From Selaginella moellendorffii (lineage: Eukaryota; Plantae; Lycopodiophyta), in the NCBI RefSeq assembly GCF_000143415.4, contig NW_003314340.1, forward strand, positions 614,161-678,160: a stretch of 64,000 nt of DNA. Direction: 5' to 3'. How positions within the stretch are numbered: position 1 is the stretch's first letter; the number at the start of each line of letters is the position of its first letter. Both the position numbers and the translations under genes were made by a program. Under the pieces are notes generated by a model. The model was given only the letters and a program-made list of their open reading frames with translations. It did no database searches and was not told the DNA's origin. Positions 15,195-61,090 of this stretch are shown piece by piece.

Positions 15195-15759
15195 TCGCAG
15201 TCATCCGGATCAATTGATGATGATGTTCTCTCTTTTCTAGACCGATAGTCAAGGCATGGCCAAGGTAGGAACGAATGCAACGGTAACATTGCTTACTCCC
15301 TTCATCAAAGTTTTCTCATCTTTCAAGAGCTCGCCCTGGTCGAGCAGAATGTGTTGGCGCTTCGTCAAGAAGAACCTCCATCTCAATGAGCCTTTATCCA
15401 CCCTGTGTTAGTCGCTCCCCGAAAACAGGGACGAGCTCCCCAATGGAATCATAAACCATAGCATGCTGGTCATAATTACATGGTAATGTTCTGACCTTTT
15501 AACTCTAATGATATCCTCTGAGCATTGATATCAAATTCTCCATACATTCGTGAGTGGATTTCCAACAGCTAGAGTCGTCGCCTCGCTGCCAGCCTCGTCC
15601 AGATCCTCCAGCCTCCCACACACAAGCCCCAGCGAGCACGCCAGGAGCGTAGGAGGCATGCCAACTAGAAACTTTCGTTTAGAGTGTCTTCTATAAAATG
15701 AACTTGATTTATTTTAGAGTGTGTAGTTTTGATGTGATTCATGACGGCCAAGCTGGCGT

Positions 15760-33944: not shown

Positions 33945-36900
33945 AAATTGTCACTTATCAGCGTTGTCAACATTTTCCAGATTGGCAGCCACTATTTCTT
34001 GGGTGGAGACCTTGGCGTCAACAACATCTTGTTGGTGCTGCTGCAGTGGAAGGTTTGGACATCGAGATGCATCTGGGAAACGAGGAATTGCGCGAGTACT
34101 GAAAGGACTTTGCACAAATAAGTTAGTGACCCTTCTATATTTCTTTCGGGAGTATCATCAAGAGGTTCACTCGGCACTAGTTTATCTAGTGTTTACTTTC
34201 CAAGCTCATTTTTATAGCAAATGATCTCCTATTTTTCTCTCTATATTGGTTAATACAGGTTCGAGTTTGTCTTTTATTGCTCGACTTGTTGCCACACGTT
34301 GTCGTCTACACTTATGTCATGCAGTGGAGTCAGTTATGGCAATAGTTGTACACATGCATGTGCACGGGATGAAGTGGACTTAATTGTGCATGTGGGTGAT
34401 CTCAAGCTTAAGTTGTAATCATTGTGGGTGGTGCCAAGTCAAGCTTTAGACCTCATACTTTGTATGGATTGGTTGCAACACAATCGTGCCAAGTGTGACT
34501 TTGAGGCTTTCCCCCTTGTCTTATACTTCTTTATATTTCATTCATTCCTCTCACTTCCGTATTTCTTCGTCTTTTTGCTTCTACCTTTGCTTCCATTACT
34601 TTTGTCCCCCCACTACTTCTTTCTATATTTCTATTTTATTTTGCTCTTCCCTTTTTCGATCCCTCTGACAATTTTTGTGTTGCAGTCGTTGATCGGCTCA
34701 TAAAGGAGTATTCTAATCTCTTTGAGTTTGACCTATTGTCTGGGGCCAAGATTGCCATATGTCATCTGATTCCAACTAGGGATGCTTGTCCAATTAAGGT
34801 TCCCATTTGTCATCGGTCACCCAAAGAGATCAAGATTTTACGTGCAAATGTCAAAGAGATATTAGAGAAGGGTGTTATTCAGAAGTTACGAAGTCTTTAA
34901 GCATATGAACCTCATCTTGTGACAAAGCCTGATAGGAGTATTTGTTTTTACATTGACTATCATCCGTTAAATGAAGTGACGATCCTAGATGTGTACCTTC
35001 TTCCTCACACTGCTGATCTCTTAGATCGTTTGGGGTGATGTCGTTAATTCACCAAATTAGATCTTGCTTCTGGCCGAAGAAGATGTTCCTAAGATTGCTT
35101 TTCATATACCATTTGGTTTGTACGAGTTCTTGGTGATGCTATTTGGTTTGAACAATGCTCTAGCAACTTTCCAACGGATGATGGATAAGGTTTTTTGCGA
35201 TATGCCAGAAGTGACAACTAACTTCATTGATGATGTCTTGATCCACTTTGAAGGGATGTGGGAGAAACACATTCATGATGTTTATAAAATATTGGATTGG
35301 CTATGGGACGTTAGTTTAAAGCTGAAGCAATTGAAGTGCATGTTTGGGTCCAAGGACACAACTCATCTTGGGGACTGTATTTCTCGTGAGTGTTTGTAAG
35401 TTGATCCTAACAAACTTGTGGCTATTCTAAAGTTCCTTACTCCGAAGTGTGTGGCCTAATGCAAAAATATGGGTATTTCACCATTTAGTATGGCAAATGT
35501 AGAATAGGACTATGCATGTAAACTAGAGCTAGATTATGCCTTAAGTTGGTTGACCATGCCAACCTCTTTCCAACCCTAAACCCTTCCCTACTTTTAGGCA
35601 AGGTGCAATATCTTGGTCATTTTGTGGATCATATTTGAAATCGCATTGCATTGTTGTGAGCATTGTTGAAGTCATTAATATCATCTTTCATCTAGTCTCT
35701 AGATTGTGAGTGGGTGTTCGTGGATTTCAAAGCGCTATTGACAACTCTTTCGATTTCGGTATATTCTGACTACACTCGACATTTTATTTTACGCGTAGAT
35801 GCTTCTGATATTGGTTTTGGAGGTGTGTTGATGCAAAAGAACTCGAGTGTGCCTGGTCAACACCATCCTATTGCATATATAAGCCACACATTACAACCAG
35901 CAGAGGTGAATTACTCCATGACAGAGAAGAAGTATTTAGTAGCAGTCTAGGGTTTCGAGAAACTTCATGCATATCTATATGGTTTTCAGATATTACTTAA
36001 AAGTGATTATGCTATCGTTACTTCATTATTGAAACAAAAGAACCTAGTTGGTCGTACTGTTTAGTGGGCTTTGAAATTCTAAATATATGATTTTGATGTT
36101 GTTCATCACCTAGGGAGTTTTATAGCTGATACTAATGCCCTTTCTCGAGTTCCTCTTCATTCTCCACTCTCTTCTCATGTTTCTAATGAGCCTATTATTC
36201 TAGCATCTGTGGATTTTCTAGACAAGGATTCTTTGCCGTCAACAGTTGTTATACTTAATGTTCAATGTTCACAATGTGTAAAGCAAGATCTACCTTCTCT
36301 TGATGAGGTTCGCGAGGCTCAAAAGATTGAGCCATGGATTCAAAGGCTTCGAGATGGGTTTAAGAATCTTGGATCACTTACTAATAACTTGCCATTCCAG
36401 CATTTCCATTCTCAATATCACCTTGAAAATAGCCTTCTTTATTTATAGGGACGGATTTTAATGATCCTTTACGGCTGGTGATGCCTTTCATCTTTATTCC
36501 ACGGTTTTTCCATGTCTACCATGATTCTCCTGTTTTAGGCAGGCATATGGGACATCGTCGTGTGATCGAGAAGCAGTGTAGGTCTTTCTATTGGCCAGAG
36601 ATGCGACATGATGTTATTCGGTATGTGTGTAGCTGCATTTGGTGCCAAGATCATAATACTCCCCCTCATGCCGTGGAAAAATAGTTGGAGTCAATTGTAG
36701 TTTCTCGTTCATTTGAGTTGGTGACGTTTGATCTTATGGGACCTTTTCCACAATCGACTGCTAGTAATGAATACGTTATTATTGCTTATGACTATTTGAC
36801 TCGTTGGGGGTGCTCTTGCTAGTGCCTCTACAATTGTTGTTGGATACTTCCTCCTCAATTGAATGGTGTTCTAGCATTCTTGTCCAGAGCAGATTCTTCC

Positions 36901-37832: not shown

Positions 37833-39327
37833 TACCATAATAGGGATGTTTGTTAGAACATAAAATAAAATATTTGCTAAAAAAGTATTTTTATTTCTTT
37901 CTTAATTCTGTACTCTATGCTTTATAACTAATAAATGTTAGGTTTATCAGAATTTAAAAATTATTAAATTTTAAATAAAATTCTATATAAAACTATATAA
38001 TTGTTTGAAAGGAAAAAAAACAACCATTGATATAAGCTTTTTGTATATAAAATAGAGATTTGATTCTTTTCTAGAATACATTCTTGAGGGGTTTTATTAT
38101 ATCATATTATCTAGAATTTATGAATCTCTATTCACTCTCATTTGAAGAGAGGGAAATACATATAAATATCTGTGAGTTCTAGTGTTAGTAATTTAATGCT
38201 TGCAATCTTTTTTTCTAGGGTTTAAGGGCTAAGAAATGCAATAGCTATCCCAACTAAACCACACAAGAGAAAAAAAAAGAGGATAGTGAAGATAGTGATC
38301 AAATTCAATAACAAAAGATGTAACAAATTGAATGAAAAATAATGCTCTCCTACTTGTTTTAGATAATTGCAATTTCTTAACTTTTAAGAAATGCTTTATT
38401 TATTTTCTAGCTTCTGGTGAAAACAATGGCAATGATTAGTATGATGGCATATATGTTCTTACAACACACTGTACCATCATGTACCCGAAAGACTACCATA
38501 AAATATTTTTTGAGATGGTAAAGACAGAAATAGAGACATCCGAGTACTATGTCTAGTATTGCAAAAAGAGCACTCACAAGTAAATGAAATAAAAAGTGAA
38601 ATGAAAAACTTTTTTTTATTAATTAAAGTATAATAATTTTATATTATTGATAAAAAATAAACATCAATAGTTTTGGAAAATCTAGTTAGCTCCAAAAGTT
38701 TTTTTCAACTCAGCAATAATAAGGCTTGCTTGGTATATATGAATATCCACTTCAAAATTCTAGTGCAAGATGTTAATGAAAAATGCTTGCAAGGAATGTA
38801 TACCTTCTCATCTTCCTCACACTTTATAAAGTCTGGACATATGCAATAAAGAAAGTCTTGAATGGCAATTGTGTACTCTCCACCTAAGCTCTATTTCGTT
38901 AAAGTGGGAATTGTCATTATCCCACTTGTAAAATAAGGTTTCCAAACCTTTATATAGTATATAAATATAACAAAATTCAACTGCATTGAGGCATATGCCA
39001 TTTTATTTTAAACAAGGAAATGTCTACTCAATCACTTCTCCTCCCCCTGCCACTGCTTCACCTCTCTCTTCTCTTTGTCATCGTCGTCCAATTTCTTTCC
39101 ATCCTTTTAATATTGGCTCAGTTGCTCCGAGTCTAGGTGGAGCCCAAGTCCCCATTCAATCTTTACTTTCCCCTTATTAATAAAACAACTTTGTAGACTT
39201 CCAATAACATGCTGTAACACTTTTAGTATAATGCAAATCCTCTTAAAGAATTGTCTTTTAATATTAATACAATGACATGGAACCCCATGCCATAATAAGT
39301 TACATTTTTAAATAAATACATGCCATC

Positions 39328-42300
39328 TCAGACTGTTATTTTTTGCCTCCAACGCCTATACAATAATCTTGGAATTTCATCACTCTCCACACTATCAGGA
39401 TTTAAACCCAATAGTAATGCCATCTCTTCTCTAATACGTCCACGCTCATGTTCAGTGGTCGAAGAACCCATCCGGTTGAGCAGATTATGGAGATGCGGAT
39501 AGTGCTTGGCTAGACAATATACATGCCATAAATGATGACTGGTGTCTGTCCGATCAAATGGCTTCTGATATACCGTTCCATCTGCCATTTGGTTGATTTC
39601 TGCAGCCACCTCCTGGACTGGCCGGTTCTCTATCACCATTGCTCCAAGCCGTTTTGCAAGGTCCCCCAGAACATACGGTTTCTTCTCCCTAGTTTCCATA
39701 CTGCAAGAGATGGGGTGCACTGCATATGTGTGCGTGTTTGCTGCAGTTTTAATCGGCGAGTCATCGATGATGAGGATTTCACTTGACCTAGCAGTCCGGT
39801 TCATCACTATAGCCTCTGGCTTGACGAAGATGGGCTTGCTACCCCTCACATGGACCATAGTCAAGCAATCCTCCTGCGTTAGGAGAAAGTCAAATGGTAA
39901 TATTACTCGCGTCTGATCGTGCATCATCTGTAGCAACGTTAATGCATTGTGGCGCATCATGGATGTCCAAACTCCCAATTGCAAATTGAACCCGGCCCTC
40001 TGTTTTAAGTGTCGCATGGTCATTATTAGATCCCGCAGTTTCTCCCGTGTGATTAATGTGAATCTGTCTCTTTTGACCAACTTGCGACTGCAGGCTTTGG
40101 AGGGTGCAGTGACATTCGAGGACGAGCCACGCTCATGGGAGAAAAGGACACCGTTCAGATCAAAAACGATACAGTACCTTCGCCGTGACTATGAAATGAA
40201 ATGCGTCAGCATAAAAAATGGTACAAGTCAATTTTACCATCTACAATATTAGCGAATGGTGCTCCCGATGGTCGTTGAGAGGGTTTTGGTCGAGGAAACG
40301 TGAAGGGCGGAAATACTCTCCTCTACAATGTGGGGTCAATCGCATCCGATGGCGTATGGGCACATGCCATTTCAGCTGTAGACTCTGGTACAACTAGCTC
40401 AACAGTGGCATGGGGTGGTTCCGATGGCGTGTGATCACACGCCATTTCAGCTGGTGCCTCCGTTAGCAAAGTGGACATGACCAAACAGGCAGCAGGGGCA
40501 GTGTAGGGAGGTTCCAACGGGACGATTGGGCACAAGTTGAGTCTGTTGGAAATGAGGATACGACTGGCTCGGCGGCTGGGGCGGCCTCATGCGGGTCCAA
40601 TGGCGCCTGGTCACCGTCAGTTGGATACGTGGACAAGATTGACTTAGTGGTATGGGCAGCATCAAGTGGAGCGTGGTCAGCTTGCTTGGCGTTGATATGG
40701 ATAGTAGCCTCCACCAGCTCTGATGACTCTTGCAGCCAAGTAGAGTCCACTGGCGGATCCATATGCATGTCCAAATATCTCCCTTCGATTGAGATGGTAT
40801 CCTCCCGTGCTACTAAAAACAAACTCATTAGCACATTGAATCGACTATACTGTATTTACCATCAACTGCTATTGAGGAACTAGGACCGATATCACTTGGG
40901 CGCACTGCTGATTCTGAAGGATTGGACATACGTTTCGACCCTTGCTTGGCACTATCCTTCCTCGACACTAAAGGCTAGAGTTTGTAAATTCAACTGAATA
41001 ATCTCTACTTACCATTTGCTCTGCGACCTACATGGACAATGTTAGAAATGGTAAAAGGTTAGGAATGGATGTACTATTATTTACCTGATGGTTTGTCTTG
41101 TATGACCTTCCTCCGCTGCTCTTTGGCCACCTCAGGCTGGCCATCGTCGTCATCATCATCGTCGTCGTTATTGTGATCGTCACTATTGTGAGGACCATCC
41201 AAGTCCTCTTCTTCCTCCTCTTCTTCGTCCTCCTTTTCTTTGTCCTCCTCTTCGTCCTTCTGCTCTTCCTGCTCATTATCTTTCTCTGGCTCCTCATCCC
41301 CCTCCTGCATTTCTTCCATAGGCTGCTCAGGCTGGATGGCTTGTTCTTCCAGGACCATCTTGGGAAAATCATCTGGCCAAGTCTCCATCTCAAAATACAA
41401 GACATCCATAGCCTGTTTTAGTGCGTGACCTAGGACTGTATCCTCACCCGACTGTCTTAACATGGTTTCTGCACGTTCTTGCACCCTTCTAAGACGATGA
41501 GATGGGAAAAACGTGGCCCTGACTTGAAAAGCATCCCTCATCCATTGTACCTCTCCATTGAGATTGGGGAAGGGGAGTCCGCCATAGGAATCTGAGTCAG
41601 GAGGTGGTGACTGCCTACTTTCACTCAGCCCTTGATCTGCAATGAATGGCATGAGCACACACGCCATAACTGCGAGGCATTACCTATCATCTTTTCATTG
41701 CCCTTCTTCCTTTTCGAATCAAATGCCTCTGATCCCGACGACTGTCCAATGTGCTTTCGTTTTTTATGACCACTGTCAGTTTGAGCTTGGCTAGTGCTTG
41801 CCTGTTTTGCCTTTGAAGAAGTGTCTCCTGCAAGGAATGGCATGAGACCACACGCCATTGCAAATATAATTTGTACCTCCTTTTTTCCTATTGCTTGTCT
41901 GTTTGTCCTTCTTCGACGCGCCACCAGTGCGCTTTTCAGTCCTCGTGTCTGAATATTCACAATGATCTATAATCAAAATGGCGTGAGGCCTCACGTGACC
42001 TTACCTTGTGCAGGTTGTGAGCTCGGCCCAACATGGGTATCTTCAACAGTAGCTGTTAACGCCGTTTCAGCATCTGGGGGTGGCCACGCTCCTGCATACA
42101 AAGCTTGTGAGATAACATATAAACTTAAAGTGCGTACTCACCAGGTTCGCAGAGAAGATACTGTTTTTCTTTGGCAACTGTAATTATATGCTCCATTGAA
42201 GTCACCTCTTCAATGGAGTTTGTTACCGCAACACACAGGACACCCTTGAGTAGTGCGGCTCGAAAGAATAGTCCGCCGCAGTTGTACTCGACAACGCATT

Positions 42301-44745
42301 TGCCCTTGGAGTCGGAAGCAGGTGACCCACCCGCTATTGCGTTGAAGACCCAGCTGAGCATTTCCCATGCTGCACCTGGAGCTTTCTTTGGATTGGAAAG
42401 CTCCATAGCCGTCTTCAGTTCCTCAGGCACGGGTAAATTGACCTCCCTCAGATCAATTCGATCGGCCTTGTCGAACGAAGCTGGGAAGTCACTCCAGTCC
42501 CACTCTGCTGCAAGACCAATAACAAGGGCGAGTGTGAAGATTCAGACATTCGTCGGTATCTTCTTCTTAGCCATTATCCCATGGATCTCCCGCATCTCCT
42601 TGCCTTTCAACCGAGCCTTCACCTCGTTCAAGGCCTTCCAAAACTTGTGATAGGATTCGGAGTCGTAGATCATATAGTGGACTGAAGATTCCACCTCCGC
42701 AAGTCCCACCATTAAGTCAATGATGGAGCTGACTTCGTCTGCATGAGTGATCTCCTCGTTTGTGAAGTCCATCACATAAAAGATGTTCTTGACCTGCTCA
42801 TCTCCGCGGGAAACGATGCTCCTCCACCTTTGATCCTCATCCGAATTCAAGTATACCCGGTAAGGTTCTCGATAGGCCTCTGCTGCGGGGTCGAGCTGTT
42901 TCTGAAGCCGGCGGTCGACATCACTCTTAATGAAATTTGGATACTGATCCAACTTCTCAGCTTTACTTTTTGTGGCATCCCGCAGCAGATCGATGAACTT
43001 GGGGGCCCCCTTCACGTACTCGTCGATGTCTTCATTTGACAAATCCAGCGCTTCCATCATCTCTTGCGTGGTGTCGATGCTCACCCTCTCCATGGCCACT
43101 TGCTCGAAGATCCAATCCTTCAATAGCGCACGAGCTCTCAGAGTCGTGCATAAGTCCTCGTATGTCACAATATGGCCAGGAGTCATTTTGGTCTTGTTGA
43201 AGACTACCTCACCACGTAGAAGAGCATTAGCCACTGTCAGAAGGTCGTCGTCGTCTAGAGACCGCGAGAAACGCAAGGCGTTGAGCTTCAAATCATTGGG
43301 CTTCCGGCCGTCCTCCACACCTATTGAGTTTAGTAACTCCCCGTCATGGTACCTCCTCAGCACATCTACCCATTTGTCAAAAACAACTTTTGTCGCGAGT
43401 AGAATGTTATGGATGCTGAGTGTGTCATTGACCCCCAGTGTTTTCGAGAGAAGACTCGAGAATTCCTGCAATGGAAATGGTGTGAGGCCACATGCTATGC
43501 CACATGCAACGAGGCGTACTTGCCAGGCATTAGTTGCTAGTGCACGTCCTTGTCCTGGTTTTTGTGGCTTCTTCAGTTGAACCCAGAGCTTCCGTGTTCG
43601 TGCTAATGTCTCGTGCAGACCCGATTTGTAGCACGTTTCTTGCTTGACATTCTGCGCGTGGGAGATGTATATGATAGATCGGAGGGGCGAGTTGCCTTTT
43701 ATTAGACGGACAACTCTTGTCTTGAAGACTTTCTTCACCTCCTCGCCCACCATAATATCCACAACTATCTCTTGCATCGCCAAGCTAGAATGCTGCCCGG
43801 AGACGGCATAGAACCGGATGTTCTGATCGTCCAACACCTTCCTATTGATAAAGTCTGGAAACCTCGTCTCGCCCTTCATTGTTCGGTAGTAGGGGATCAC
43901 GTCTGCGATGTCGGGTGTTACTAGACTTGCCAGTATCTTCTGCTTCAGTTTCTCCACCCACTCATCAGATACTAGCCTGTGGTTGTATTTGCTTTGGATG
44001 TCGATACGGCTCACGTCGATTGTATATACTTTGTTGGAATAGTAACAAGTATTATTATCTGCGACGATTTTTGCTGCCTCTTCTTGCTCTTTCTGCTCTT
44101 TGCGGCTCTTCTTTTTGGTGGGTGTAGTGTTCAAACCCGAGGCAATGGCATCACCGAGTAGCTTCTTTTTTGGAGGAGAGTCGGACGTCGGCTTGAGCTT
44201 GACCACCCTTTTCTGCTTCGGGGTAGTTTTCAGATCGACCTCCTTCCCCTTCGCTTCGCGAACTAGAGGCACTTTCAACGGCTCAATGTTGGAATATAGT
44301 TTTTGAACATCGCCGTAGGTGAGGTCCGTGGATTCCATGTGATCTTCATAGACCCGCAGCGTCTTTGAAATTGTGGGCCTCCCAGACAACCTCTCCCTAG
44401 CTCCCTTTAGGAATTCCTCATAGCCGCTGCCCCCCTCTGGGAAGCCGCTAGGATGTGCAAGGTGGATCTTGAAGGCAGACGCTGTCTCTACCACAAGTGC
44501 CAGTCCATATTCTTGCATGGAACTGCATGGAGTGTCTATCACTTGGATGAGGATCCCCATGCATTCTTTTCTCCCACCATCTGTGTTGTACAGCGTCAGA
44601 TCCTCGCCTTCCATCCCGAAAGTCCAACTGGTGAGCTCCTCCCCCTTTTCTACATCCACATTGACAGTGGCTGGAAGAAGAACGCAATTCCTCGCCTGTT
44701 CAGAAATGCACAACAATTAGAGCTGACAGATGAAAAGCTAGCAGC
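39328..44745 (-). pseudogene. Transposon cargo gene: ParB-like + degenerate DNA-methyltransferase-like + acidic linker + FCP1/NIF-like HAD phosphatase
   Basis: FYAVSGQHS (~43787-43813); CVVEYNCGGLFFRAALLKG (~42243-42298); CIVFDLNGVL, GVWTS, IIDDSP (40190-39328); in-frame stop 42542-42544, frameshift ~40530, stop ~40323; true start unresolved. Confidence 0.7.
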
Positions 44746-46081
44746 TGGAAATAACGTGATGCCACACGCCATTCACCACTGCATCAGATGTCTTGAGGCT
44801 GCATCCTAAGATGGCGTGAGGCTACACACCATCTGTAACCGGACTGCACTCGAGAGCCCAATTGGTGCATGCCAATGTTGCTACTGAATGGCATGTGGCC
44901 TCATGCCATTTTCTACTTGGCCTAAAAGACTTACCATTTGAAGCCGAATGGAGGCGTGACAACCGGACTCGCTGGCGAATGTGCACTGTGTGTGCAGCAG
45001 ATCGTAACAGCAAAGCTACTCTGCCACTTATAGTTGGAGAGTGGCACTGAAATCTCCCGGGACGCCAAGTGGGCTGCGTGTGGGTGGCGGAGTGGGCGGC
45101 GGAGTTGGCGGCGAAGTTACAAACTGGGTGTGTCTTGAAGTGGACGCCGATGCACATGAGCGCGATGCGAGCACGAGTGTGATGCAAGCGCGAGTGGACG
45201 CCGATGCACACGAGAAACCTGTAGAGAAGGTAGATGAGCGCGAATGTGAGCGTGATCGCGAGTGGGAGCGCGATGCGAGCGCGAGTACGAAGCAAAATGC
45301 AAAACCTAACCTCACACGCGCGAAATGTCACGACGGTTGGTAATCTCGCCACATCATCATTCCTCGGACTTGGGCGCCACCATTAATTTCTGGATCGCCG
45401 CACGCATGCATGCATGTGAAATCCAAAAGAAATCCGCAACGTCATCATTCCTCGGACTGCATGCACACGAAATCCAAAAGAAAGATCATGATTGGGATAT
45501 CATTTAATACCCTCGCTATATTTATACCATGCATGATTGGATATTCCAAAGCATCTTGTATTTCCAAAAATGCCAGATGTTCAGCTAAATAAATTGTCAG
45601 AGGATTTGATGTGACGTTCAAGCGTGTGGGCTCATGCAATTTTGATCCCAAAAAATGCACCAAAAAATGCTCGGCATCATCTGGCGTTATCTCTTGAATG
45701 GCGTGGGGTCGCATGCCATTTTCAGGGGCACATAGGAGTATATTCCTAGAATATTATGACATGCGCGAGATTGTTTTGAGTTTTCTGGAGATCCAACCGT
45801 TAGATCACAACTAAATTTTACAGAATGGTATACAATGTCCTTCTTGATGACCCTGCAAAGAAGCATCTCGATCGGACACCACATGAGACCACACGAGCCT
45901 TACAATGTTTCAGGGGCATTTGCCATAGATTCGACCATTATTTTGCTCCAAGATTCTACAGTTTGGTGTGCATTGACCTTTCCATCGACACTGCAAAGGA
46001 ACATCACAATCAGATGCGAGATCACAAGAAACCAACTTCACTAACTCTGGTTTCACCAAGATCTACGTAAGGAGTTATGAA

Positions 46082-49000
46082 ATGAAAGGACCCTCTCTAT
46101 TGAAATGTCTTTATAGTCCTAGGGGCATTGTGACATATCAAAGGATTTTGAATGGTGGGAAGAGAGTTGCAAAAGGGACCCTTGTGTCTATGGATCGGAA
46201 CTTTGTTATACACTGTCAAAGGCTTGGGGAAGGCAATGCTGCTGTATTAGTAGAGATTGTCTTCGATGGGAATGTGGTCGCTATTGAACGAGGAGAGATG
46301 GTCGTCGGGGTAAATGTTGTTGTTGCCTTGAAAAATCTGCAGAAGAAAGCAGATGTTGGGGACAGCGCAAGTGCGACGCATGTTCCCTCCGTGGATCTTA
46401 AGAACCGTGCTACATGGATTCAGGCAAAGGTGTTTCTAAACAACCCCGAGGGGGAGGTGGTAGCTGAGGGCTTAGCCACAGTTGTCGATCCAAGAGATGC
46501 GGTTGCTAATCAAGAATTGGGCTGGGATGATATTGGAGTTGCGATTTTAGAGGTTGTTGACACAGAAGAAAATAGTCTGACTATTGGAAGCATTGTGCGG
46601 TGGAAATTGAGGCATTTAGTGTTTGAGAATGTGAAGGATTCACAATCAAACACCACTACAACTGATGACAGAACATCTCTTCATGGGAAAAGAAAGTACA
46701 CCTTCCTAAAGCGCAGCCAAAGGGATCTGAGCAACGAACCGAAAAAGCAGAAAATGGCGATGGAGGTTCGAATGGTCTCGACAGTTGCTTGTTGCAAGAG
46801 GAGGTGCTGTCAACATGCTTATTGGGATGCTATTAAAGAGGAGAGAGCAAGATACAAGACATTGTCCTGGAAGGTAGCTCGCAATTTTGTGTATGAGGCA
46901 TTACGATCATCTGTTGATGCTTCAGAACATCAGGTGGGGGGCATGGTCTTCCAGAGGGGTTTGGTCTGCATGAAGGCATGGAGAATCATTTATGGAGTCC
47001 CTCGAAGCACATTCTACAGAATCAAAACTGAGTTCGAGGAACAAAGGGTTCAACAGGCAGTCCATGGGAACGACAGTACGCACAAAACCAGGGGTCATGT
47101 TGTATATGGAGAGGCAATCTTCAAGAGGTTTGTCGAGACATGTAGCGAGCAACAACCACATAAAACCCACCTCTTGGAAGATGGAACACGAGACACCCAA
47201 CGAGTTCTCCCTTCCATGTATACCAAGGGGGCCATATTGGAAGATGTGAATCGGGAACTCTAGAGTAATGGCTATAGGAAGCTGAGCCAATCTAGATTTA
47301 GTAGATTGTGGGGCAACAGGTTCAGGGATGTGAGTATAGGAAAGTACTCCAGCTTTTCAAAGTGTGACGAGTGCACTGCTATCAAAATGGCTTTGTCGAA
47401 GAATTCTTGCAGCGCTCAAGAGCGAGAGACGTTGGTTAGAAAGCGGCTCGACCACAACATCGAGCAGAGAAGCTGTAGGACTGCATATTATCATAACAGG
47501 ATTCTCTCCATGGAGAGACTTGACTCTTACCTCTGCATCATCCACGACAAAATGGACCAGAAAAAGACATGCTTACCTCGACTCAATCCTGCCCCCAAGG
47601 CAATCTCTTCATCCATGCAACTGCCTATGTCTCTGTTTGGCATAATCGCTCATGGGCATGGTGCCCAGAACTATGGGAACTTCTTTGTACCTCTATGGGG
47701 TGGCGGGGGTGCAAACATGATGATTGCGTCCCTAGCAAAACACTTAAGGTCTCTGCAAAGTGCGCAGACTGAGCTGAACGGCCAACCCTTGCATAAGGCC
47801 CTTGTCGATCAAACCCCATACAGGGTTCAGCTGGAGGAGGAGCAAAGGCTTGCAGTATCGCGTGGGGCCCCATGCCATCCCAGTGAATATGTTGGCTGTC
47901 AGATTGTAGGGTTATCACATGAGGCCTCATGCCATTCCGACGAGGCTGGTCGCCCGGTGAATGCACAGCCTCATCCAAACGAAGCAGAATCTCAAGGAAG
48001 TTCTTGCGGCCGATGTGGCCTTCCACCCCATCTTCTGCTCCAAATAGACAATGCTGGCAGTGAGAACAAAAACATGTACGTCTTCGCGTACTTGGCAATG
48101 CTTGTTGCCAAAGGCATATTTGAAACGGTTACACTTGGCTTTCTCATGGTTGGGCACACTCATGAAGACGTCGATGCCATGTTCAGTCACCTGGCAGAGT
48201 CCCTCCGGCGATCCAATGTCCTCACCCTCCCACAACTCTACGATGAGTTGCATCAAAGGCACTATTGAAGTTGCACTTGTGACAGAGGTTCCAGACTTTA
48301 AGGGGTTTGTAAGAGGCTACATCAGGGATGGATCCGAAACGCTGATTGGCCACTCCAAGCCTCTTCAGTTTCATTTCAGCATGCGTGACGGTGCTCCAAT
48401 GATGAGGTACAAGATGAGAGAATGGGACACAGTGTGGCTGCCAGTGGATGGCATTGAACTCTTCAAAAGAGATCCCATAACTGGGGAACCTATGATTCCT
48501 TAGGGTTCCCCACGGCCGATGCACCCGGATGGACTCAAAGACCAGGAAAGTATAGTGGCCGGGATTAGATAGCATATTGCCTTCTGGAAGAGGGGGTTGG
48601 TGTTTGGTGGAGAATCCTATTTTAAGAGGTGCAAGCCTTTGCTCGAATACTGGGAGAAGATTATATCTGCTATCCAAAATGGGCCGGTTGTATATGAAGA
48701 ATTGGAAGAGTCCTTTTGGCCAGAACCCAGAGCACCAGATAGTAGCGGAACAATGTCCTCTGGAAATGCAGTGACAGATAACGATGTTGAGGATCACTAT
48801 TGTGGGCCGAGGAACAAGAAGCCGGATTCAGCATTCAATCCAGTACAGGTCTGCAAAGGAATGGTCGTGCTTGTCAGACCCAGTAATAAAAAACAAATGA
48901 TATGGGTGGGGCGTTGCATCACTGATGCAGAGGAGGACGCGGAAACTAACTCCTTCAATGTAACTGTGGAGTGGTTCAAGCCAAGTTCCGGATATACGAA

Positions 49001-49248
49001 GGATTGCCTAGAAAAGAGATGGGTGCTGAATCCAAAGGATCCCAGCATGAGCATACCGGTGAATAATGTTGTGCATGGTTGGATGCGGAAGCAGAGTGCC
49101 ACCATCACCTTGCCAGACCATGCAAGAGATGCAGCAAGAGCATTCATAACCCGGGTTCAAGGTGAGATTCATTAATATTCCTTTACTAAGTTTCTAATGT
49201 ATTTTATTTCAAGGTGAACAATCCGAATCTGAATCAGAGGAGGCATGA
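46082..49248 (+). pseudogene. Sola-like DDD transposase with premature stops and a frameshift
   Basis: FSKCDEC, IIHDKMDQKK, LLLQIDNAGSENKN, FLMVGHTHEDVDAMFS; stops 47261, 48501, ~48568; frameshift ~48250; small last exon 49214-49248. Confidence 0.8.
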
Positions 49249-52200
49249 TGGCATGGCGTGATGGCGTGAGGCGTGAGACGTGACACCAAAAAGGAGGTGT
49301 CCACTAGCGCTTAGGCTTATAATGGCGTGTGCCCTCATGCCATTTACTTGATCACCAAATACCTTTTTCCCTTTGCACTAGTATATCTTAATACCGGTCT
49401 GAGAAATAGAATGGCATGTGCCCTCAGGCTTTTTACTAAATCACCTTTGAAAGAAATGCAAGCCTCTATGTCGTAAAAAAAAGGTACTAGAGAAATTCCT
49501 TAATAATATGAATGTTATTTAGTTTCATGAAAATAAACTAAGGGTCAAATGAGTTAAATGACTTCTCCAGACTAGCAATGCCTCTTGCTACACCTTCACA
49601 ATTAGATTCGTTAGAAAAAGATAACATTGAATAATATCTAAATGTTCTCACCATTAAGTTATATGTCTGGCTAATAGGAATGACGTTCATCTTGGAAAGC
49701 TTACCACACGCTCAATGAATAAACAAATAGTGTGTGCGCGCATGCCATCGCTCTTCTTTAGCTTCAGATTCGGCTTGTTCACCTTGACAATGAGATTTAT
49801 TATACAACCAGATGGACTCAGTCTGGACACAAAGTCACCGCGCTAGTCACCATGCCCCAGATATGTCTAGCCCCTGGACAAAAAACATATAATTTCACGT
49901 CATTTTCAAATACTTGAAAATTTGTACCTAGTCCCATTTTACTGAATAAATCCCACTTTAACGAAATAGAGCTTACCTGCTGTTTTAACTATATACTCTT
50001 TTGCAAGCGCAATCATGTATTTTATAGAGAGAATCTCACACTCAAACATTTGAGCCAAGCTTATTTTACCCTGCTTCTACTTAAAGACGGTACTAATAAA
50101 TTTAATTACCTTACTTTTTCTTGCTAGCCTCCTATGCATCTCTGTGGGAATAATGTTAGTTTTGTCACTCATGTCTCTAACTTTCCTCTCAAAATTAAAA
50201 TTAGATTTCTTAAGGTTTTCAATTTCAATTAAGGTGAGCACAACTTTATTAGCAACCAACCATTCTTTATGTATTACATCAGGTTTAGTCATTATAGTGT
50301 CTTTGCTTCATATGATTGGCATCGGTATTGCAACAATACAACTGGCACCATCTAAAAAATCTTGCTTGCTTTTGTTTCTTATAGAAATATGGGGTTGGAA
50401 CAAAAGCAAATTTGTCACCATGAATCTAGGTATAACACTTGCCCTTCAAAAACATCTCCACACACGTTACATTAGATTTTGCTAGCACTTGGTAGATTGC
50501 CCATTGCCTTGGCTCTACACTACAGTAAATGATTTCAATCTGTTGTGATGCACTCTCTTCATCAGCCATTTGAGGTGGCTCAATCTAAGGGTAGTGTTTT
50601 AGAACAAAATGGTATTTAGCATTAGGTCTATGAGAGCTTTTCGCTCTAAGGTCCGTGCTAACATCTTCACAAGCAAAGAAAAAATGTCATTTTGAGCAAT
50701 AGTCTTTATATCACCAATAGAAACCTTGGGAGTGTACTTCATAGATGTGCCATAGACCACTTCCTTAACTATAATTGCTATTATTTGGGTATGTGGAGTC
50801 AATTTTCTCATCATTTTATCATATCACATCTCAACAAAAGGCATTGTTCCCATATATCTTTATTTCTCGAATGCCAACACTTTTGAAGATTGTTTTATAC
50901 TACATATTAAATTTGATAAACAAGCTTTGTATAGACTCAATTTCCCTTTCCCTACCTTAGAAGAATGCTAATTTAGTGTTTACTTTAGGAGAAATTCACA
51001 ATTAAAGTGTATGTGAGGTCCTCAAGTGGTTGATCCTAATAGAAAATGTAATATTAAAAGGCAAAAAAATAAGAAGAAAAAATAAAAACTAGCTTGAAGA
51101 GAATGATGTCCTTATTGGAACATTTTAAATTCCCACCACCCTAACCATAACTCAAATTGTAGTAGACAATTTATGTTTGTATGGCTATCATCATGCCATT
51201 ACATTTAAATCTCATTTACTTTTGCCTCATGCTCTTTTTTAGAAAGTGCAGCTTGCTATTATTTGGACAACTCCTTAAACATTAATTGAATTTTTAGTTT
51301 GATAAAATGATAGTGATGATTTAGATTATGAGCCAAATGGAATTCACAAGTCCACTCATGACTTTCTAATGGCTGACCATTCCCAAAAATTGCTAGAATA
51401 CCATTTCAATTTGCATTAGCCTCATTTACCATAAAATTGCAAAAGTTTGCAGACTTATTAGTTCTCTTTCGTACATTATCAGAGAGGGACTTCCAAAATA
51501 TTTTTTAGGCTATTTGGTCTTATACTTTAAACTCTACTATCACAATTGTCAAGTTATAATATAGCCTATGAAAACACAAATATTACAACTATTTCAATAT
51601 AATGAGAATAAAAATTACTTTAGATCATATACATAAGCTCCCATGGTTATTCAACCTGATATGCACTTTATATAGTCAAAATGTACCCATGTATTTGCAA
51701 CATTACTAAACTTAAACATGTCCATTCAGGAGACAAGATCTACACCAAAGGCAAAGCATATTGTAGACATTTTAAAGATGAATAGACACTCCTACTCATT
51801 CATAACTTAGTCTGGAAACAAACTTTCGTAGATAAACTTGTATGGACAAGTCTGTTTTAGTTCAAGGATGGAGTCAATTTTTTATTACAACTTCCCCTCT
51901 CAAAATTCACATATCCAAGATTTTATCCTAAATAATATAATATATATAAAACAATATTATTGTAATGTATGAAATACAATGGATGTACCTCCTTAGGCTA
52001 GTAGCAAATTACACTCTTCGTAATAAATTCCACAAGCTAGCCTTGTTTAATTGAATCTTTTGGCAACCCAAATTGAGTAAGGTGTTTATGATAAAATCCT
52101 TAAGGACGGTCTTCTGAATATGCTTTGGAGTTGCAGATGAGTTTTTCATTGTCTCTTTCTACACAACATCTTTGAAATGGTTGAAAGAATTTCTTTATAT

Positions 52201-53146: not shown

Positions 53147-54989
53147 CACTACTTAGTGACATTTAAAGCATGTACCTATTATTTAGAATCTATGCCTTAG
53201 CAAGCGTTAGCAACATCCTACTGATGTCTCAAACCCAAGAAACCAATCCAGGGCAAACCACAAAGAACATGTGGTATTGAGAAAAGCCATAATCTATCAA
53301 AGAGAACAACTAACCATCATGAAAGATCATTAATCATCCCATCAATAGAGAAATGCATAATCATCGTCAAAGTAGGAATCCACCATCCCAAAGAACAGCG
53401 AATCATTTTATATCAACAACAATCAAGTAAAACCTTTTGAAAAGGATAATCAACTATCTTAGATAATAGTCAATCATCACCAATGATTGCTAGATGCAAA
53501 CATTAACTTCAACATCGAAGCTAAAAGCCAAAATGCCTTCTCCAGCAACTTTTAACAAATGGAACAATGAGCACAAAAACTCAAGGAACCAAGAGCTTGA
53601 AGAAGCCTTTAGCTAAGTCTTGCCTAACAATGATCACAAGTTCCATATAAACTAACTTCAATGCTAAAGAGAAATCATGGTACAACCCACAATATCCCCC
53701 TCAACACATCCATAAGCTAAACTTTATAATGCCAAAGTTAATGAAGAGCATGTCTGCATCAATCCAAAAGCTAAACATAACGAAGCTATGCTCAACAAGT
53801 GATCACTAAACGATCCTCCATGAATTCATCTATAGAAAACGTAACTCACTTCATAATAGCACAAGAAGAATCATCAATGATCAACATATTCCAATTCAAA
53901 TCCAAGAAGGACTCAAATATTCTAATATCAATCACTAACTCTTCCTCTCGTAAAGTTAGTATAGTCCACGACTAAATCACTTTTCAAGGAAAAGTGTAAG
54001 CGACTAATTTTTCTATTCTACTTTAGTCACTTAACCACACCTTTGATCGCTTGGAGGAGTCTCACTCACAACCTCCATAAGTCCTATTTCAGACTTGGGC
54101 TTGCTAGCCCCGAGAATGGCATCCCCGCCACTCAACCTTTGCACTTGGTCCAAGTGCTCCACGTGTTCGATCCCATGACCGACACCACAAGGTACCACCG
54201 ACATATCAGCCCGTTACGCTAAGGCCATGCCCATTCACCTTGGTCACACCGGTGGTCCAACACCACCTCCATCACAGTCTCATCTCTCAAAGACTGGGCC
54301 ATCTGTTCATGAGTGATCATCCCAAATCCACTCCTTAGCATCCTTAGGATGCCTATAGACATGGGGAATAGCCTTCCCCAATATCTCTTTTCCGATCCCC
54401 ACCAAGTCCCTTTCTACTCATGGCTGTGTTCACCAACACTACCACTGGGTCGAGGCTCATAGGCCCAACCACCAAGTCCCATGGTCCTCTGGGACTTCCT
54501 TAACACCCAACTGTATCCTTGGTCACTACACCAGAGGACTACTCCACTTCCTTTCCATAGTCTAGGCCTTTGGGACAACATTTCGGAACACCGTGGCCTT
54601 ACGCAAGCCTTGTGGGTACTCTTCCCGCTTTCCGCCTTTAGGTGCTCTAGCCATAGGCTTAGAGCGAGGTTCCGTTGAGCCACGCTTGGTATCTAAGTAA
54701 GTAGTGCCACCCACACTTGGATTGAGAGCATCGGCCAAACGATCTCCCAGGGGAACTAGAGCCGGCTCTTGAACACTTCACCAAGCTGCCCCGCTTGTCA
54801 GTCTGTGTTCACTCTAGTCTTGGACTTCCCAGTGGGCAGCTCATCACCCAACACTAGGTACAGCCTTCCTGGGCCAAACTAGCCTTTCCTGGCCAAACTG
54901 GCTCCACTGCAATCCTCCCCCTTACTATACTTTTGGAGCTCACCAAACCCCCTAGGGTCTAGGAGACTAACGCTTTGGGCTTTCACCCT

Positions 54990-55440
54990 CTCAGACTCGA
55001 ATTCGGACTCGGACTTGGACTCAGATTCGGATTCGGACTCGGACTCGGACTCGGACTCGGGCTTGGTCTCGGCCTTGGCCTCGGTCTCGGTCCCAGTCTC
55101 GGTCTCGGTCTCGGTCCCGGTCTCAGTCTCGGTCCCGGTCTCGGTCTCAGTCTCGGTCCCAGTCTTGGTCCCGGTCTTGGTCTCGGTCTCGGTCTTGGTC
55201 TCGGTCTCGGTCCTGGTCTCGACTTCAGACTCCATCTCGGGTCCATCTTGGACTCCACCTCGGGTCCATCTCGGACTCCATCTCGGTCCATCTCAGACTC
55301 CATCTCATGTCCATCTTGGACTCCATCTCGGTCCATCTCGGACTCCATCTCGGGTCCATCTCGGACTCCATCTCGGACTCCATCTCAGACTCCGTCTCGG
55401 ACTCCATTTCGGACTTTGTCTCGGGTCCATCTTGGACACT
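54990..55440. repeat. Tandem hexamer/12-mer array in 3' LTR
   Basis: GACTCG, GTCTCG and GACTCCATCTCG repeats. Confidence 0.93.
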
Positions 55441-58400
55441 TCCATGTGTTATGTGTTGGTCCTTTTTGGGTCCCTTTTTGGAGCCTTGCTCATTAGTTGC
55501 CTCATGCTCGCTCCTCGAGCACTTTGTTGGGAGTTCCACTCCCGCTCTCGACCTTCCAAGTCAGAGCTTTTTGGTCCAAACGTGTTACACTCGTTTGGCT
55601 TTCGCTTCGGCCACTACCACGTGGCACCCTTTCTGGCTGCACTTTAGGGCCTAGGGATTTTGTGTTTCACAACTCCACCACCTATAGACGAAGTTCGATG
55701 TCCTCATCGAACAATAAACTATTTTATAAAGTAATACCAACTTGTATTGCCATTTCCATCCTTGGCCCCTCGCCAATATTCATCAATGGTTTGATATTGA
55801 AGGCTCGCCATGCCTTGCCCATCCTCTAAGGAGGATAGTCTCTCCAACTTAGACACCGATTGGACCACTTGTAGTGGTTCTCTCTTTTTATTGGTTTAGT
55901 TCTTGCTAAACTTATTAGAGACACTGTTTATATCTCAATCCCGCTACTTTTCGGGTAGTCTCAGTTTCCATCGACATAACCTTTGCACTTTGGAACATTT
56001 ACTTTTGACTTCTTGAAGTCAATTTTCTACGTGTCTCCGACACCTTGCATTGCACATATTGTGCAAGTCCACTTCCCTATCCTAGGAAGTTCTCTACTTG
56101 AGGGCACCATCATCCTCTTTTCTATTTTGTGCCACCCTTGGCACTACGTTCCAATTATCATCATTTGTGCTAGGGCTGTCCACGGCCCTATCCTTTGGCT
56201 ACTTTGCCACTCCTCACTTGGAGTTTTTACTTGCCAAATTGGAACACTTGGGAATCTATCCTTGGAAGTCCACTTCCTTTCCCGCAATCTGTTAGTATCA
56301 AACACATTAGTGTTCCTTGGCTAACCTTGCCATTTGGATTCCTCCCATTAAATTCCATGGCCCAAACTTGGCCACTAGTCTTTTGCTCCTATCCATTGAT
56401 TGTTGCATCAAGCAACACAGGATCACTACCTCCTTCCTTGAAGTATTCTTTTGGTTCCATGGCAAAGCTCCACTTCGCCAAGTCCAAAGGGTACTCACCC
56501 CTAGTAGGTCTCTTTAGCAATTTTTGCTATGGGCCCCTTCCACAGCCCAACATTGTGACCCTCTCATGAGTCTTTCCCCAAGACAACTTTCTTGGACTTA
56601 CTATACCATCGTATTGACACAACTGATTTCCCTTTAGGTGTCCTTCCCATTTGGTCACCTCGACCAAGCCACACCATTATCAATAATTCAAATCAACACT
56701 TTGAACTGGGAATCATATTCCTTAACCCAAACAAAGACCTTGTCTTTGTTTAGCCACAAAATCACCTGGTGATCTTAACTTAACCCCTTAGCAGGTCTAC
56801 CAATAGGAATTATGTCTTCCAGACCCTTCTAAGTTGTTGACTATCACCCCGGGGGCATCCCCCACACTTAGTGGTGCGCCCAAGCTAGCCCTTTCGGCCA
56901 AGGATCCATAGCAACTGAAACTAGGTGTCCCCATCTTATTCACCACGTCCTTGGTGCCCTTTGCACCAAAGTATTCAAGTTAAATATGCCAAACTTTCAC
57001 TCTAAGTAATTTAACCGTGCATCACGACTCCGGGGCATCCCCCGCTTGGTGGTGTGCCCAAGCCAATCTCCTCATTGAGAGTCAATGACCACCAAAATAT
57101 GAGTGTCCTCATATTCCAAACCATCACCACGCCCTAGTGATTTGGGACTTGAACCCAAGCACTAGAGGGTCGGGACTCAAACCCAACCTCCGTATATGTA
57201 TCTACGGATGGCATCACCTAGGATGCCTGGCGTGACTCTCCACGCTGGTGCACCAACTTTTACTCAAAGCACACTACAGACCACAGCTTAAGAACCTAGT
57301 TCCTCCACACTGCCAAGTCCTCTCATTTGACACGTTTGTGATCATGCATGGACTCCTCCATACTTGGTCCCATGGCCCACCCTTCTTGAAGTTATCACCT
57401 TCAACTAGGGTATGTGTTCGCCCAACTTGCCAGTCTCGCTTGGCATGTCCCCTGACCACTGTAACATGGTTCCTACATAAGCGTGAAAGTCCTTGACCAT
57501 TGACTTTTGTTTAAAGCCCTCTCTTTGAACACTCGGGAACTACTTCCCTAACCTTGATAGCCTTGCCTCATGGCAAGCTTCAAGACCACGCTTCTGTTGC
57601 GCCACTCTAGTTTCGCGCATTCCATGAACCATTTACACTTGGCATTTCTAGGTACTAAGCTACTTAGAATCGTCTTTGGGAACTTTGAAAGGATTCTATC
57701 CTTTAGTTTGCTAAGGCCTCCCTTTTCGCAAGCTTTATAGTTGCCATATAGTTTAATATGGACAATTTCATATTTTAGACTCTCCATGGCATCACGGTTG
57801 CTAGCAACAACACCCTCGAGCTCCCACTTGATTCTCCACTCCCAACTAGCATAACCACCTTTAGTTATGCCCTTCGATTCCTATGGTTTGGTTCTATCCC
57901 CTTACTACTTACTTTTGGCTTCACACCTTTTCTTCGGTCATTCTCCTCCAAACTAAGAGGATAGTTTTGCCCTTTCTATCATGCCTTAGCAAGTATTCTT
58001 AGGGATGAACCGACTTGATAGCTTACGGAGTGGTTCCTCAATCTAGGTATGCTCACTTTATAATCCCACACACTAGGATTAATGTTGTTGCTTATGGGCC
58101 ATTACATGCCCATCACTAGCCTTGCCAAAATTCTATTTTTGGCTTTGTCCAATTCGGGTAGACAGTCTTCTCTCGTCTTCGCAATCTTCGACATTTGGAT
58201 AGCACCTTCTATCCTTCATTCGCTAAGGACTTAGTCCCTTGGGCCTTATCTATTGCCCTCGTGACATCAAACACCACTTCCTGGTGTCCTAGAGTGTTTG
58301 GGTGTCCCAAATGATGGCCTTTTAAGCAATGAGTATTCTCTTTTACGACATTGACTTACTATATCACAACATAAGCAATTTATTCCCCATAAGGGTATAT

Positions 58401-60724
58401 CTAACTTTTTTATGCCATTAAGAAGTCTTGGGTAGTTACCTTCTACCAGTTTAACAAATTATCTTGCACATTTTGCTTAGTTGCCTCATAGTTGTCAAGT
58501 CCTACAACTCATTGTTGGTGCTTCCACACCTCCATCATTATTTTGGTCACCACACTCTACCACATGCCTTTCAACTTAGGATATGCCATTCCCATTTTTG
58601 TTGGGATTCCCTTAGCAAGGGATTCTTATGAACCCACCAACATAACCTCAAGGTATCACACCTTGGCATATTTGGTGTCTCCACACCATTGGCCCCATGA
58701 GCCTATCCTTATGACACTACTTATTAGTGTCTAGGTCTTTGCCAAGACCAATATAGTTGTTCCTCATGCTAACTATCCGTTAACACCGCACCATAATGTT
58801 TGCACCCAACTTTGGGCCAAAGTTGTTTTCTTCTGGGAACATCTTTCCCACAACTTTAGTATGGCACATTCTGCCATCAATGAGATACCTACTGTTCTCA
58901 TACTTCAATCTTATGATCCTCCCTATATCTCATGGGCACCATACACTTCAGTCCAAATGCTTCAACTAATCCCTTAGAATTATTCCTTGACTCTTATTTG
59001 AGTCATCCAGCTTTTTGGACTTTATCATCTGACGACCCGTGAGGTCTTACCTTTGAGGTGCTAGCTCGCTGGAATACAACTTCTTGTATTCAAGTCCTAC
59101 TCACAAGGACCATCTTTGCAAGTGTTACTCCGACACTTGATTTGTTCTCTTGGGGCAACCTTTTGCCCTTTAGGACCACTCGTCTATGTGATGAGAATAC
59201 CAACTCATCCTCTGAGTACGCCCCCAACTCCTTGGGTTGTTCCAGCATTTATTAGAGGTAGCCCTGGCTACCATTTCGAGGACTGGTGTCCTCTTCTGTA
59301 TTTGACCTCCCACGGTCAACAATTTCGGTCTCAAATTTATGAGTACCAACCTCAACCATATAAGGGTATTCTTGTGACTCCTTTATTATTTTGGAGTCTG
59401 CATCTTTCCCATGATCCCAACTATAGTTGTTTACCACAACTACATTAGCTCGTTTGCTGCATCAAATGCTCATTTGGATCACATCCTCAGTTCTCTAAGG
59501 AAACCTTTATACTGTTCCCAAGATCCCAAAGTCATTCCCTTATTAGCCCTTTTCCATCCACCATATCGTGCACAAGTTCACACATGAACTTGAGTGGAGA
59601 GCTATGTCCTCTCAACATGCTACTCCTCGAGGATAGGTCCATATCTAGGACCTTCCAATTCCAATACAAGTGGTGATATACTTGGCCACCAATAAGAGTC
59701 AGACTAAGGAATAGCTCCGATACCAAGCTGTAAGCGACTAATTTTTCCATTCTACTTTAGTCACTTAACCACACCTTTGACCGCTTGGAGGAGTCTCACT
59801 CACAACCTCCATAAGTCCTATTTCAGACTTGGGCTTGCTAGCCCCGAGAATGGCATCCCCGCCACTCAACCTTTGCACTTGGTCCAAGTGCTCCACGTGT
59901 CCGATCCCATGATCGACACCACAAGGTACCACCGACATATCAGCCCGTTACGCTAAGGCCATGCCCATTCACCTTGGTCACACCGGTGGTCCGACACCAC
60001 CTCCATCACAGTCCCATCTCTCAAAGACTGGGCCATCTGTTCATGAGTGATCATCCCAAATCCACTCCTTAGCATCCTTAGGATGCCTATAGACATGGGG
60101 AATAGCCTTCCCCAATATCTCTTTTCCGATCCCCACCAAGTCCCTTTCTACTCATGGCTGTGTTCACCAACACTACCACTGGGTCGAGGCCCATAGGCCC
60201 AACCACCAAGTCCCATGGTCCTCTGGGACTTCCTCAACACCCAACTGTATCCTTGGTCACTACACCAAAGGACTACTCCACTTCCTTTCCACAGTCTAGG
60301 CCTTTGGGACAACATTTCGGAACACCGTGGCCTTACGCGAGCCTTGTGGGTACTCTTCCCGCTTTCCGCCTTTAGGTGCTCTAGCCATAGGCTTAGAGCG
60401 AGGTTCCGTTGAGCCACGCTTGGTATCCAAGTAAGTAGTGCCACCCACACTTGGATTGGGAGCATCGGCCAAACGATCTCCCAGGGGAACTAGAGCCGGC
60501 TCTTGAACACTTCACCAAGCTGCCCCGCTTGTCAGTCTATGTTCACTCTAGTCTTGGACTTCCCAGTGGGCAGCTCATCACCTAACACTAGGTACAGCCT
60601 TCCTGGGCCAAACTGGCCTTTCCTGGCCAAACTGGCTCCACTGCAATCCTCCCCCTTACTATACTTTTGGAGCTCACCAAACCCCCTAGGGTCTAGGAGA
60701 CTAACGCTTTGGGCTTTCACCCTC

Positions 60725-61090
60725 TCAGACTCGAATTTGGACTCGGACTTAGACTCAGACTCGGATTCAGACTCGGACTCGGACTCGGGCTTGGTCTTGG
60801 TCTCGGCCTCGGCCTCGGTCTCGGTCTCGGTCCCGGTCTCGGTCTCGGTCTCGGTCTCGACTTCAGACTCCATCTCGGGTCCATCTCAGACTCCACCTCG
60901 GGTCCATCTCGGACTCCATCTCGGTCCATCTCAGACTCCATCTCGTGTCCATCTCGGACTTCATCTCGGTCCATCTCGGACTCCATCTCGAGTCCATCTC
61001 AGACTCCATCTTGGACTCCATCTCAAACTCCGTCTCGGACTCCATTTCGGACTCCATCTTGGGTCCATCTCGGATCCATCTCGGACACTT
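60725..61090. repeat. Tandem hexamer/12-mer array in 5' LTR
   Basis: Same units as 54990-55440, shorter array. Confidence 0.93.

Follow-up and report, generated by a model that had tools for sequence, protein, structure and literature searches.

A palindrome overlapping the predicted branch points of four short introns in a Selaginella moellendorffii transposon

Results

The DNA analysed is a stretch of 64,000 nt from Selaginella moellendorffii (contig NW_003314340.1, positions 614,161 to 678,160), called hereafter the window. It contains a DNA transposon with terminal inverted repeats (TIRs), which carries a transposase-like gene and, on the minus strand, a second gene, called hereafter the cargo gene (Table 1). 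Each of four short introns predicted in the cargo gene contains one copy of a spaced palindrome that is repeated along the transposon, and within the palindrome lies the pentamer predicted to be the branch point of the intron. Judging from sequence comparisons, we lean slightly towards the explanation that the palindrome is a putative protein site, specific to the element, which coincides in four introns of host size with the predicted branch point.

Four predicted introns of the cargo gene contain the palindrome

A preliminary description of this sequence had proposed four minus-strand introns with little content beyond the palindrome. GT and AG were found at the stated ends of all four (47, 49, 38 and 54 nt, in the order of increasing coordinates), and each holds a single palindrome, which stands 7, 7, 9 and 9 nt before the AG, that is 9–11 nt before the end of the intron. 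Their removal fits a continuous reading frame, but the claim that it is sufficient did not stand: the intron 42092–42141 must also be removed, and a TGA remains at 42542–42544, which is CGC in other copies of the element. With GT...AG ends, and with frame or homology restored by their removal, the four palindrome introns have the features of U2 introns, and they are very likely real.

Parts of three host genes of the window, which we take from their sequences to be those of a kinase, a syntaxin and an arabinofuranosidase, were modelled by hand, giving a set of 32 host introns. All 32 were GT-AG introns in stop-free frames, 46–77 nt long with a median of 56 nt, and 18 of them did not exceed 56 nt; no published figure for Selaginella intron length was found in a literature search. 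The palindrome was present in none of the 32 (best match, 5 mismatches), and of the cargo gene's nine short introns, five lack it. The short cargo introns are of ordinary host size, the 38-nt form alone lying below the host range, and the earlier view of them as unusually small is not supported.

A sequence match to YTNAY, with its A at −15 to −18, was found in all nine short introns of the element. Shuffle fractions were 0.06–0.18 per intron, and jointly ~8e-5 for the five introns without the motif. In the four motif introns, this pentamer belongs to the motif itself: the last bases of its spacer and the first of its 3′ arm together make up CTCAY. The CTCAY lies on the sense strand, 16–18 nt from the 3′ end, in 4/4 cases, and the five motif-free introns have a branch-point-like pentamer at the same distance. 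YT-CAY was read on the sense strand in 4/4 motif introns, versus 5 of the 24 readings taken from the arms of the remaining 12 copies (Fisher p=0.006). The fixed spacing between palindrome and intron end is therefore explained by the overlap of the motif with the predicted branch point, an overlap absent from the preliminary description.

This overlap also bears on the intron at 41967. Its GT and AG are present, but an alternative acceptor at 41949, also in frame, gives an intron of 56 nt, and both forms keep the frame. At 38 nt the shorter form is below the host minimum of 46 nt, yet it is the one that sets the pentamer at −18. The branch-point overlap, as predicted from sequence, favours the 38-nt form of the preliminary description over the 56-nt form.

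The palindrome is specific to the transposon in the window

With up to 3 mismatches allowed, the motif, ATGGCRTG-N6-CAYGCCAT (22 nt), was counted 16 times in the 11-kb element and not once in the other 53 kb of the window, while 200 Markov shuffles gave a mean of 0.21 copies and a maximum of 2. Under our own gene model, 12 of the 16 copies are non-coding. Of the nine copies that the cargo gene holds, seven lie in introns (binomial p ~1e-6), or four of six when the first intron is excluded (p ~8e-5), both p values resting on our own intron model. The four coding copies fall in a low-complexity linker and in a variable loop of the transposase. Among the three ideas offered in the preliminary description, the parking of binding sites without coding cost is best supported by this distribution, which extends to putative sites in intergenic and subterminal DNA.

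If the motif were functionless, local duplication and template switching might have spread it, with survival only where it did no harm. Local duplications are indeed present (40349/40424 and 49322/49411), and the window copy of the element is decayed, with almost no RNA. However, the 16 dispersed copies hold the 16 arm bases and the exact 6-nt spacer amid unrelated flanks, and arm bases at 40356 and 44828 are restored in other copies of the element, so that we regard a functionless motif as very improbable. Fixed arms, a fixed spacer and copies outside the cargo transcript instead make the palindrome a likely candidate for a double-stranded DNA site, bound by a dimer.

The same features bear on a role in RNA. 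The palindrome could form a hairpin in which the branch point is concealed, and the cargo transcript's splicing would then be throttled or switched, perhaps under autoregulation by the cargo protein. In predicted foldings that include exon flanks, the predicted branch A has a pairing probability of 0.99 in the 49-nt intron and of 1.0 in the 47-nt intron, and retention of the 38-, 47- or 49-nt intron shifts the frame. Hairpin control of splicing, also among the earlier proposals, is thus possible for two of the four introns, but it finds little support in the other two, where pairing is only 0.19 and 0.56. Furthermore, arms and spacer are fixed rather than covarying, the purine/pyrimidine (R/Y) variation in the arms is that of CpG decay, and copies are also found between the genes, in the subterminal regions and in the gene of opposite strand. 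We consider this role quite improbable.

Family-specific repeated palindromes exceeded all 30 shuffles in three of 12 related transposase loci, and repeated palindromes were not above shuffles in the other nine. Related DUF7869 elements have repeated palindromes of their own, of 18 bp in L003 (641–1584) and of 22 bp with a 7-N8-7 structure in L004 (631–927) and L015 (6647–7108). Nine single motif matches in viruses were treated as chance.

The position of the 54-nt intron is shared with distant relatives

Splicing of 43466–43519 raised the BLAST score with a Selaginella RefSeq model, XP_024528744 (P0055), from 64.3 to 75.5 bits and lowered the gaps from 30 to 12, the junction reading REWQ|EFES in the model and NAWQ|EFSS in the spliced window sequence. 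JGI models of the same gene have two extra residues exactly at this position, a difference that probably reflects two acceptor calls on one intron. In a Calypogeia model the position reads KFQ|DWQ, versus KFQ|V in its close relative P0048, which then drifts into unrelated sequence. Leaving aside the annotated liverwort model, eight relatives were compared in the ParB-like region (22–29% identity): in six the sequence either gives way to a V-led tail or ends at this codon, P0046 terminates before it, and P0050 departs with no V. Two annotated models splice across the position, and P0061 begins with IILQ|SF. The breaks are read as run-through into an intron in the relatives' sequences. A peptide encoded by the palindrome was found in none of 22 relatives, among which tails of at least 14 residues were present in three clusters only.

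The intron position is thus shared with relatives of 24–33% identity, and the 54-nt intron is likely to predate the motif. The linker introns at 41967, 41828 and 41637 lie in a low-complexity region without alignable relatives.

The predicted first intron, which holds three palindromes, is of uncertain structure because a contig (X12) and three reads of run X10, from a related copy, cross 44539–44929 unspliced; past 44929, the contig runs into unrelated sequence. Past the acceptor near 44745 that had been proposed for a fifth palindrome copy, the main frame meets two stops, whereas an acceptor at 44696 is compatible with the frame and has its own CTAAT at −22. The segment 44881–44934 alone would form a GT-AG intron of 54 nt.

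The transposon and the cargo protein

The ends of the element are a 28-nt inverted repeat pair (38885–38912 and 49948–49975, 96%). Contigs from public runs span the element and differ from it by ~1.5%, almost always as A>G or T>C, which suggests that the window copy decayed through C-to-T change. At 38884/38885 and at 49972, these contigs pass into different flanks. With its TIRs, its transposase and several insertion sites, the element is therefore a multicopy mobile TIR DNA transposon. A target site duplication is needed for naming a superfamily such as Sola; ACCT is present at 38882–38885 and again at 49975–49978, and the contigs of other copies break at 49972.

The DUF7869 transposase had 37 relatives among 2743 scored candidates, and its loop with the palindromes 47857 and 47914 is a variable insertion, unaligned in relatives. 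A 47-nt inverted repeat (81%) at 49209–49787 surrounds the three right subterminal palindromes and could represent a small element, nested or derived. Upstream of the cargo start, at 45158–45295, lie GC-rich repeats of the GCGCGAG type. In run X8, about 143 RNA reads match the 40-nt piece 44995–45034 alone and then continue into other sequence, which suggests a motif common to the element and an expressed locus.

The predicted cargo protein consists, in order, of a ParB-like region, a helical region, a weakly methyltransferase-like region, an acidic linker and a NIF/HAD phosphatase-like end (Pfam NIF, E=3e-6). The model takes a 10-nt filler at 40520 and an acceptor at 40191, both from other copies, and is continuous except for stops at residues 701 and 1333, which are sense codons in other copies. 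The ParB-like region has a conserved SGQH motif, and its assignment to ParB_N is an Atlas lead (0.92) to a cluster in which 35% of members carry ParB_N. The single-sequence fold of the cargo protein was of low confidence (predicted local distance difference test, pLDDT, 35). For the fold of a relative, P0039 (pLDDT 60), methyltransferases were at VIA ranks 1, 2, 5 and 10, the best of them a weak match (Z 6.2, root-mean-square deviation 2.5, 63 residues), and Foldseek gave no match; relative P0065 matched a methyltransferase weakly (E=0.53). The region encoded by 42143–42545 ends in VVEYNCGG...AALLKG, which we take to resemble the S-adenosylmethionine-binding end of permuted DNA methyltransferases, with weak structural support.

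The closest named relative of the cargo protein is a Selaginella moellendorffii gene. Word-based homolog searches gave no match. A full HMMER search gave 15, of which P0043, P0049 and P0052 were set aside as short or repeated, P0049 alone having been inspected among these three. A metagenome scan with the alignment of the ParB-like region found no match, and no cargo relative was found in 45 loci (36 of transposase relatives, the loci being short or decayed, and nine of viral pattern matches). No VANC family match was found in the cargo exons scanned.

Table 1. Transposon, genes, introns and palindromes in the window
Feature	Position	Strand	Basis or remark
TIR DNA transposon, ~11.1 kb	38888..49972	.	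Ends uncertain by 2–3 nt
Cargo gene	39328..44937	-	Predicted 10 introns, ~1,645 aa
DUF7869 transposase-like gene	45977..49175	+	Pfam DUF7869 E=8e-36; broken in window copy
Predicted first intron, 239 nt, structure uncertain	44696..44934	-	Palindromes 44751, 44811, 44888; basis, reading frame
Intron, 54 nt, phase 0	43466..43519	-	Palindrome 43477–43498; CTCAC, A at −18
Intron, 50 nt, no palindrome	42092..42141	-	CTCAC at −17; frame needs removal; best motif match 8 mismatches
Intron, 38 nt (56 nt with acceptor 41949)	41967..42004	-	Imperfect palindrome 41978–41999; CTCAC at −18 in 38-nt form
Intron, 49 nt	41828..41876	-	Full-match palindrome 41837–41858; CTCAT at −16; frame needs removal
Intron, 47 nt	41637..41683	-	Full-match palindrome 41646–41667; CTCAT at −16; frame needs removal
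Intron, 57 nt, no palindrome	41028..41084	-	CTAAC at −15
Intron, 45 nt (49 nt in other copies), no palindrome	40968..41012	-	TTTAC at −18
Intron, 47 nt, no palindrome	40813..40859	-	CTAAT at −16
Intron, 47 nt, no palindrome	40191..40237	-	CTGAC at −16; acceptor altered in window copy, variant at 40191 in other copies
Two exonic palindromes	40349..40445	-	In-frame MACDHTP / MACAHTP; 75-nt duplication
Palindrome past cargo stop codon, near left end	39272..39293	.	Motif scan
Palindrome, intergenic between divergent genes	45698..45719	.	Motif scan
Two palindromes in transposase gene loop	47857, 47914	+ (gene)	Motif scan
Three subterminal palindromes	49322..49748 (49322, 49411, 49727)	.	Motif scan

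Discussion

The reading towards which we lean, a protein site overlaid on predicted branch points, would work as follows. A dimeric protein encoded by the element would bind the palindrome, and sites would collect where coding capacity is not spent. In four introns, of which at least that of 54 nt would be older than the motif, the CTCAY of the motif would double as branch point. An intron of 40–55 nt could host a GC-rich site of 22 nt only where the site is also the branch point, with a pyrimidine run of 7–9 nt before the AG.

Several observations weigh against this reading. None of 7 distinct runs showed a splice junction; the four introns had zero coverage in the raw RNA runs X8, X9 and X10 and in X12; and run X1, whose RNA label was guessed, contained 41637–41683 and part of 43466–43519 unspliced. 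The even coverage of both genes and of the spacer between them in X1 suggests that this run is DNA. The interval −15 to −18 was chosen post hoc, YTNAY being found in 4, 8 and 18 of the 32 host introns for intervals of −15/−18, −14/−20 and −14/−30, and the count of nine pentamers in nine introns takes the 38-nt form of the intron at 41967. Run-through was called on the relatives' protein sequences, and the tails are short. The ParB-like region matched no Pfam family and no PDB entry, and no helix-turn-helix (HTH) was identified in the cargo protein, the ParB label coming from the Atlas lead alone. Finally, three motif introns, of 54, 49 and 47 nt, are more alike over their final 9 nt than are 4957 of 4960 host triples.

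The transcript data raise the question of whether these stretches are unspliced and the gene model wrong. Besides the lack of junctions in the runs compared, the 54-nt intron can be read through in frame, as it has no stop, and a length of 38 nt falls short of the host range. Yet it is exactly the 18 residues encoded by the 54-nt intron that are missing from relatives, three introns are needed for the frame, and all four have consensus splice sites with the pentamer at the usual distance; an unspliced gene therefore seems extremely improbable to us.

The likeness of the 3′ ends bears on another explanation, which is compatible with a binding site. A cassette made of the palindrome, the branch point and a TTGCAG acceptor may have been copied within the element, where it would have overwritten at least one old intron in its 3′ half; some of the linker introns may also be its product. 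In the three introns the last 9 nt agree at 7, 8 and 8 of 9 positions, a level reached by 3 of 4960 host triples, and point mutation alone would not account for this likeness. The end TTGCAG is present in three of the four motif introns versus one of 32 host introns. The 54- and 47-nt introns have GCCTCG near the donor in common, a likeness equalled in score by 5% of host pairs, and in the first intron an AG follows each of the three palindromes within 6 nt. On the other hand, the position of the 54-nt intron is old, the 5′ halves are unrelated in five of six intron pairs, and the introns have neither terminal inverted repeats nor duplicated flanks beyond the AG. The DNA contigs include no intron-less copy, the 32 host introns contain no motif, and none of the lengths 38, 49 and 47 is divisible by 3, an argument against simple intronisation of coding DNA. 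Cassette copying appears unlikely to us. Motif-driven intron gain, the third of the earlier proposals, is contradicted for 43466–43519 by the position shared with distant relatives, but may survive for the other three introns, as cassette copying, in view of the 3′ ends common to three introns.

As to the protein that would bind the palindrome, we incline narrowly to the ParB-like cargo protein, and failing that to the transposase, which stays a candidate. By analogy, the most likely purpose of the sites would be the coating of the whole element, as VANC does against silencing.

VANDAL/VANC is the nearest system described; the element is not a member of it, but may work alike. [quoted passage not shown] Compared with those passages, the element likewise pairs an accessory gene with a short family-specific motif that is present many times within the transposon and enriched in its non-coding parts, with most copies in the same classes of place. 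Unlike VANDAL, it has a dispersed spaced palindrome of 22 bp, a DUF7869 rather than a Mutator-type transposase, and no VANC match. The same passages make no mention of branch-point overlap (PMC5735166).

Introners offer a second comparison, with median lengths that start at 30 nt in the portion of the source consulted (10.1101/2022.06.06.494994). Like the Introners described there, the element has several short introns with common sequence. However, this likeness does not extend to both splice boundaries in five of six pairs, whose 5′ parts are unrelated, one pair being borderline, and the introns lack the TIRs and target site duplications present in many, not all, Introner families. In addition, all copies in the window are in one element (none in 32 host introns, none in 53 kb outside), and one of the positions is old.

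In ParB/parS centromeres, ParB is encoded next to repeated palindromic sites, each a contiguous 16-mer. The element resembles them in that a ParB-like domain, itself a lead only, is encoded beside repeated palindromes; it differs in being a eukaryotic transposon with no ParA, no identified HTH and a site of 8-6-8 structure. In CACTA/Spm elements, TnpA binds repeated subterminal motifs. Repeated putative sites for an element-encoded protein in a TIR element are common to both cases, whereas here the sites extend over the element's full length and its ends are not CACTA.

A bolder proposal, which we think unlikely, is that the transposon has a parS/ParB-like system of its own. The ParB-methyltransferase-like cargo protein would load at the palindromes, the sites in its own gene would also be branch points, and a single copyable cassette of 31 nt would bind protein, build or convert introns, and tie splicing of the cargo transcript to occupancy. 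Narrow word searches of the literature found no paper on the combination of ParB, methylase, Selaginella and transposon, nor on a branch point overlapping a palindromic transposase-binding site in an intron of a DNA transposon. If the reading of overlaid sites is true, it would show a transposon, in a genome of 50-nt introns, fitting sites into its own gene by branch-point overlay. It would also provide a second VANC-like case of site and protein, in a non-seed plant, with a different transposase and a ParB-like protein.

Other features of the window

Three related GC-rich repetitive stretches (10387–11395, 54879–55654 and 60494–61303), with frames open on both strands, are probably repeats of long terminal repeat retroelements. 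The interval 15745–17278 is presumably a PPR-like gene in pieces, as recognised from its sequence. Two decayed reverse-transcriptase-like fragments, at 4699–5287 and 34505–36445, are in our view of the Gypsy type.

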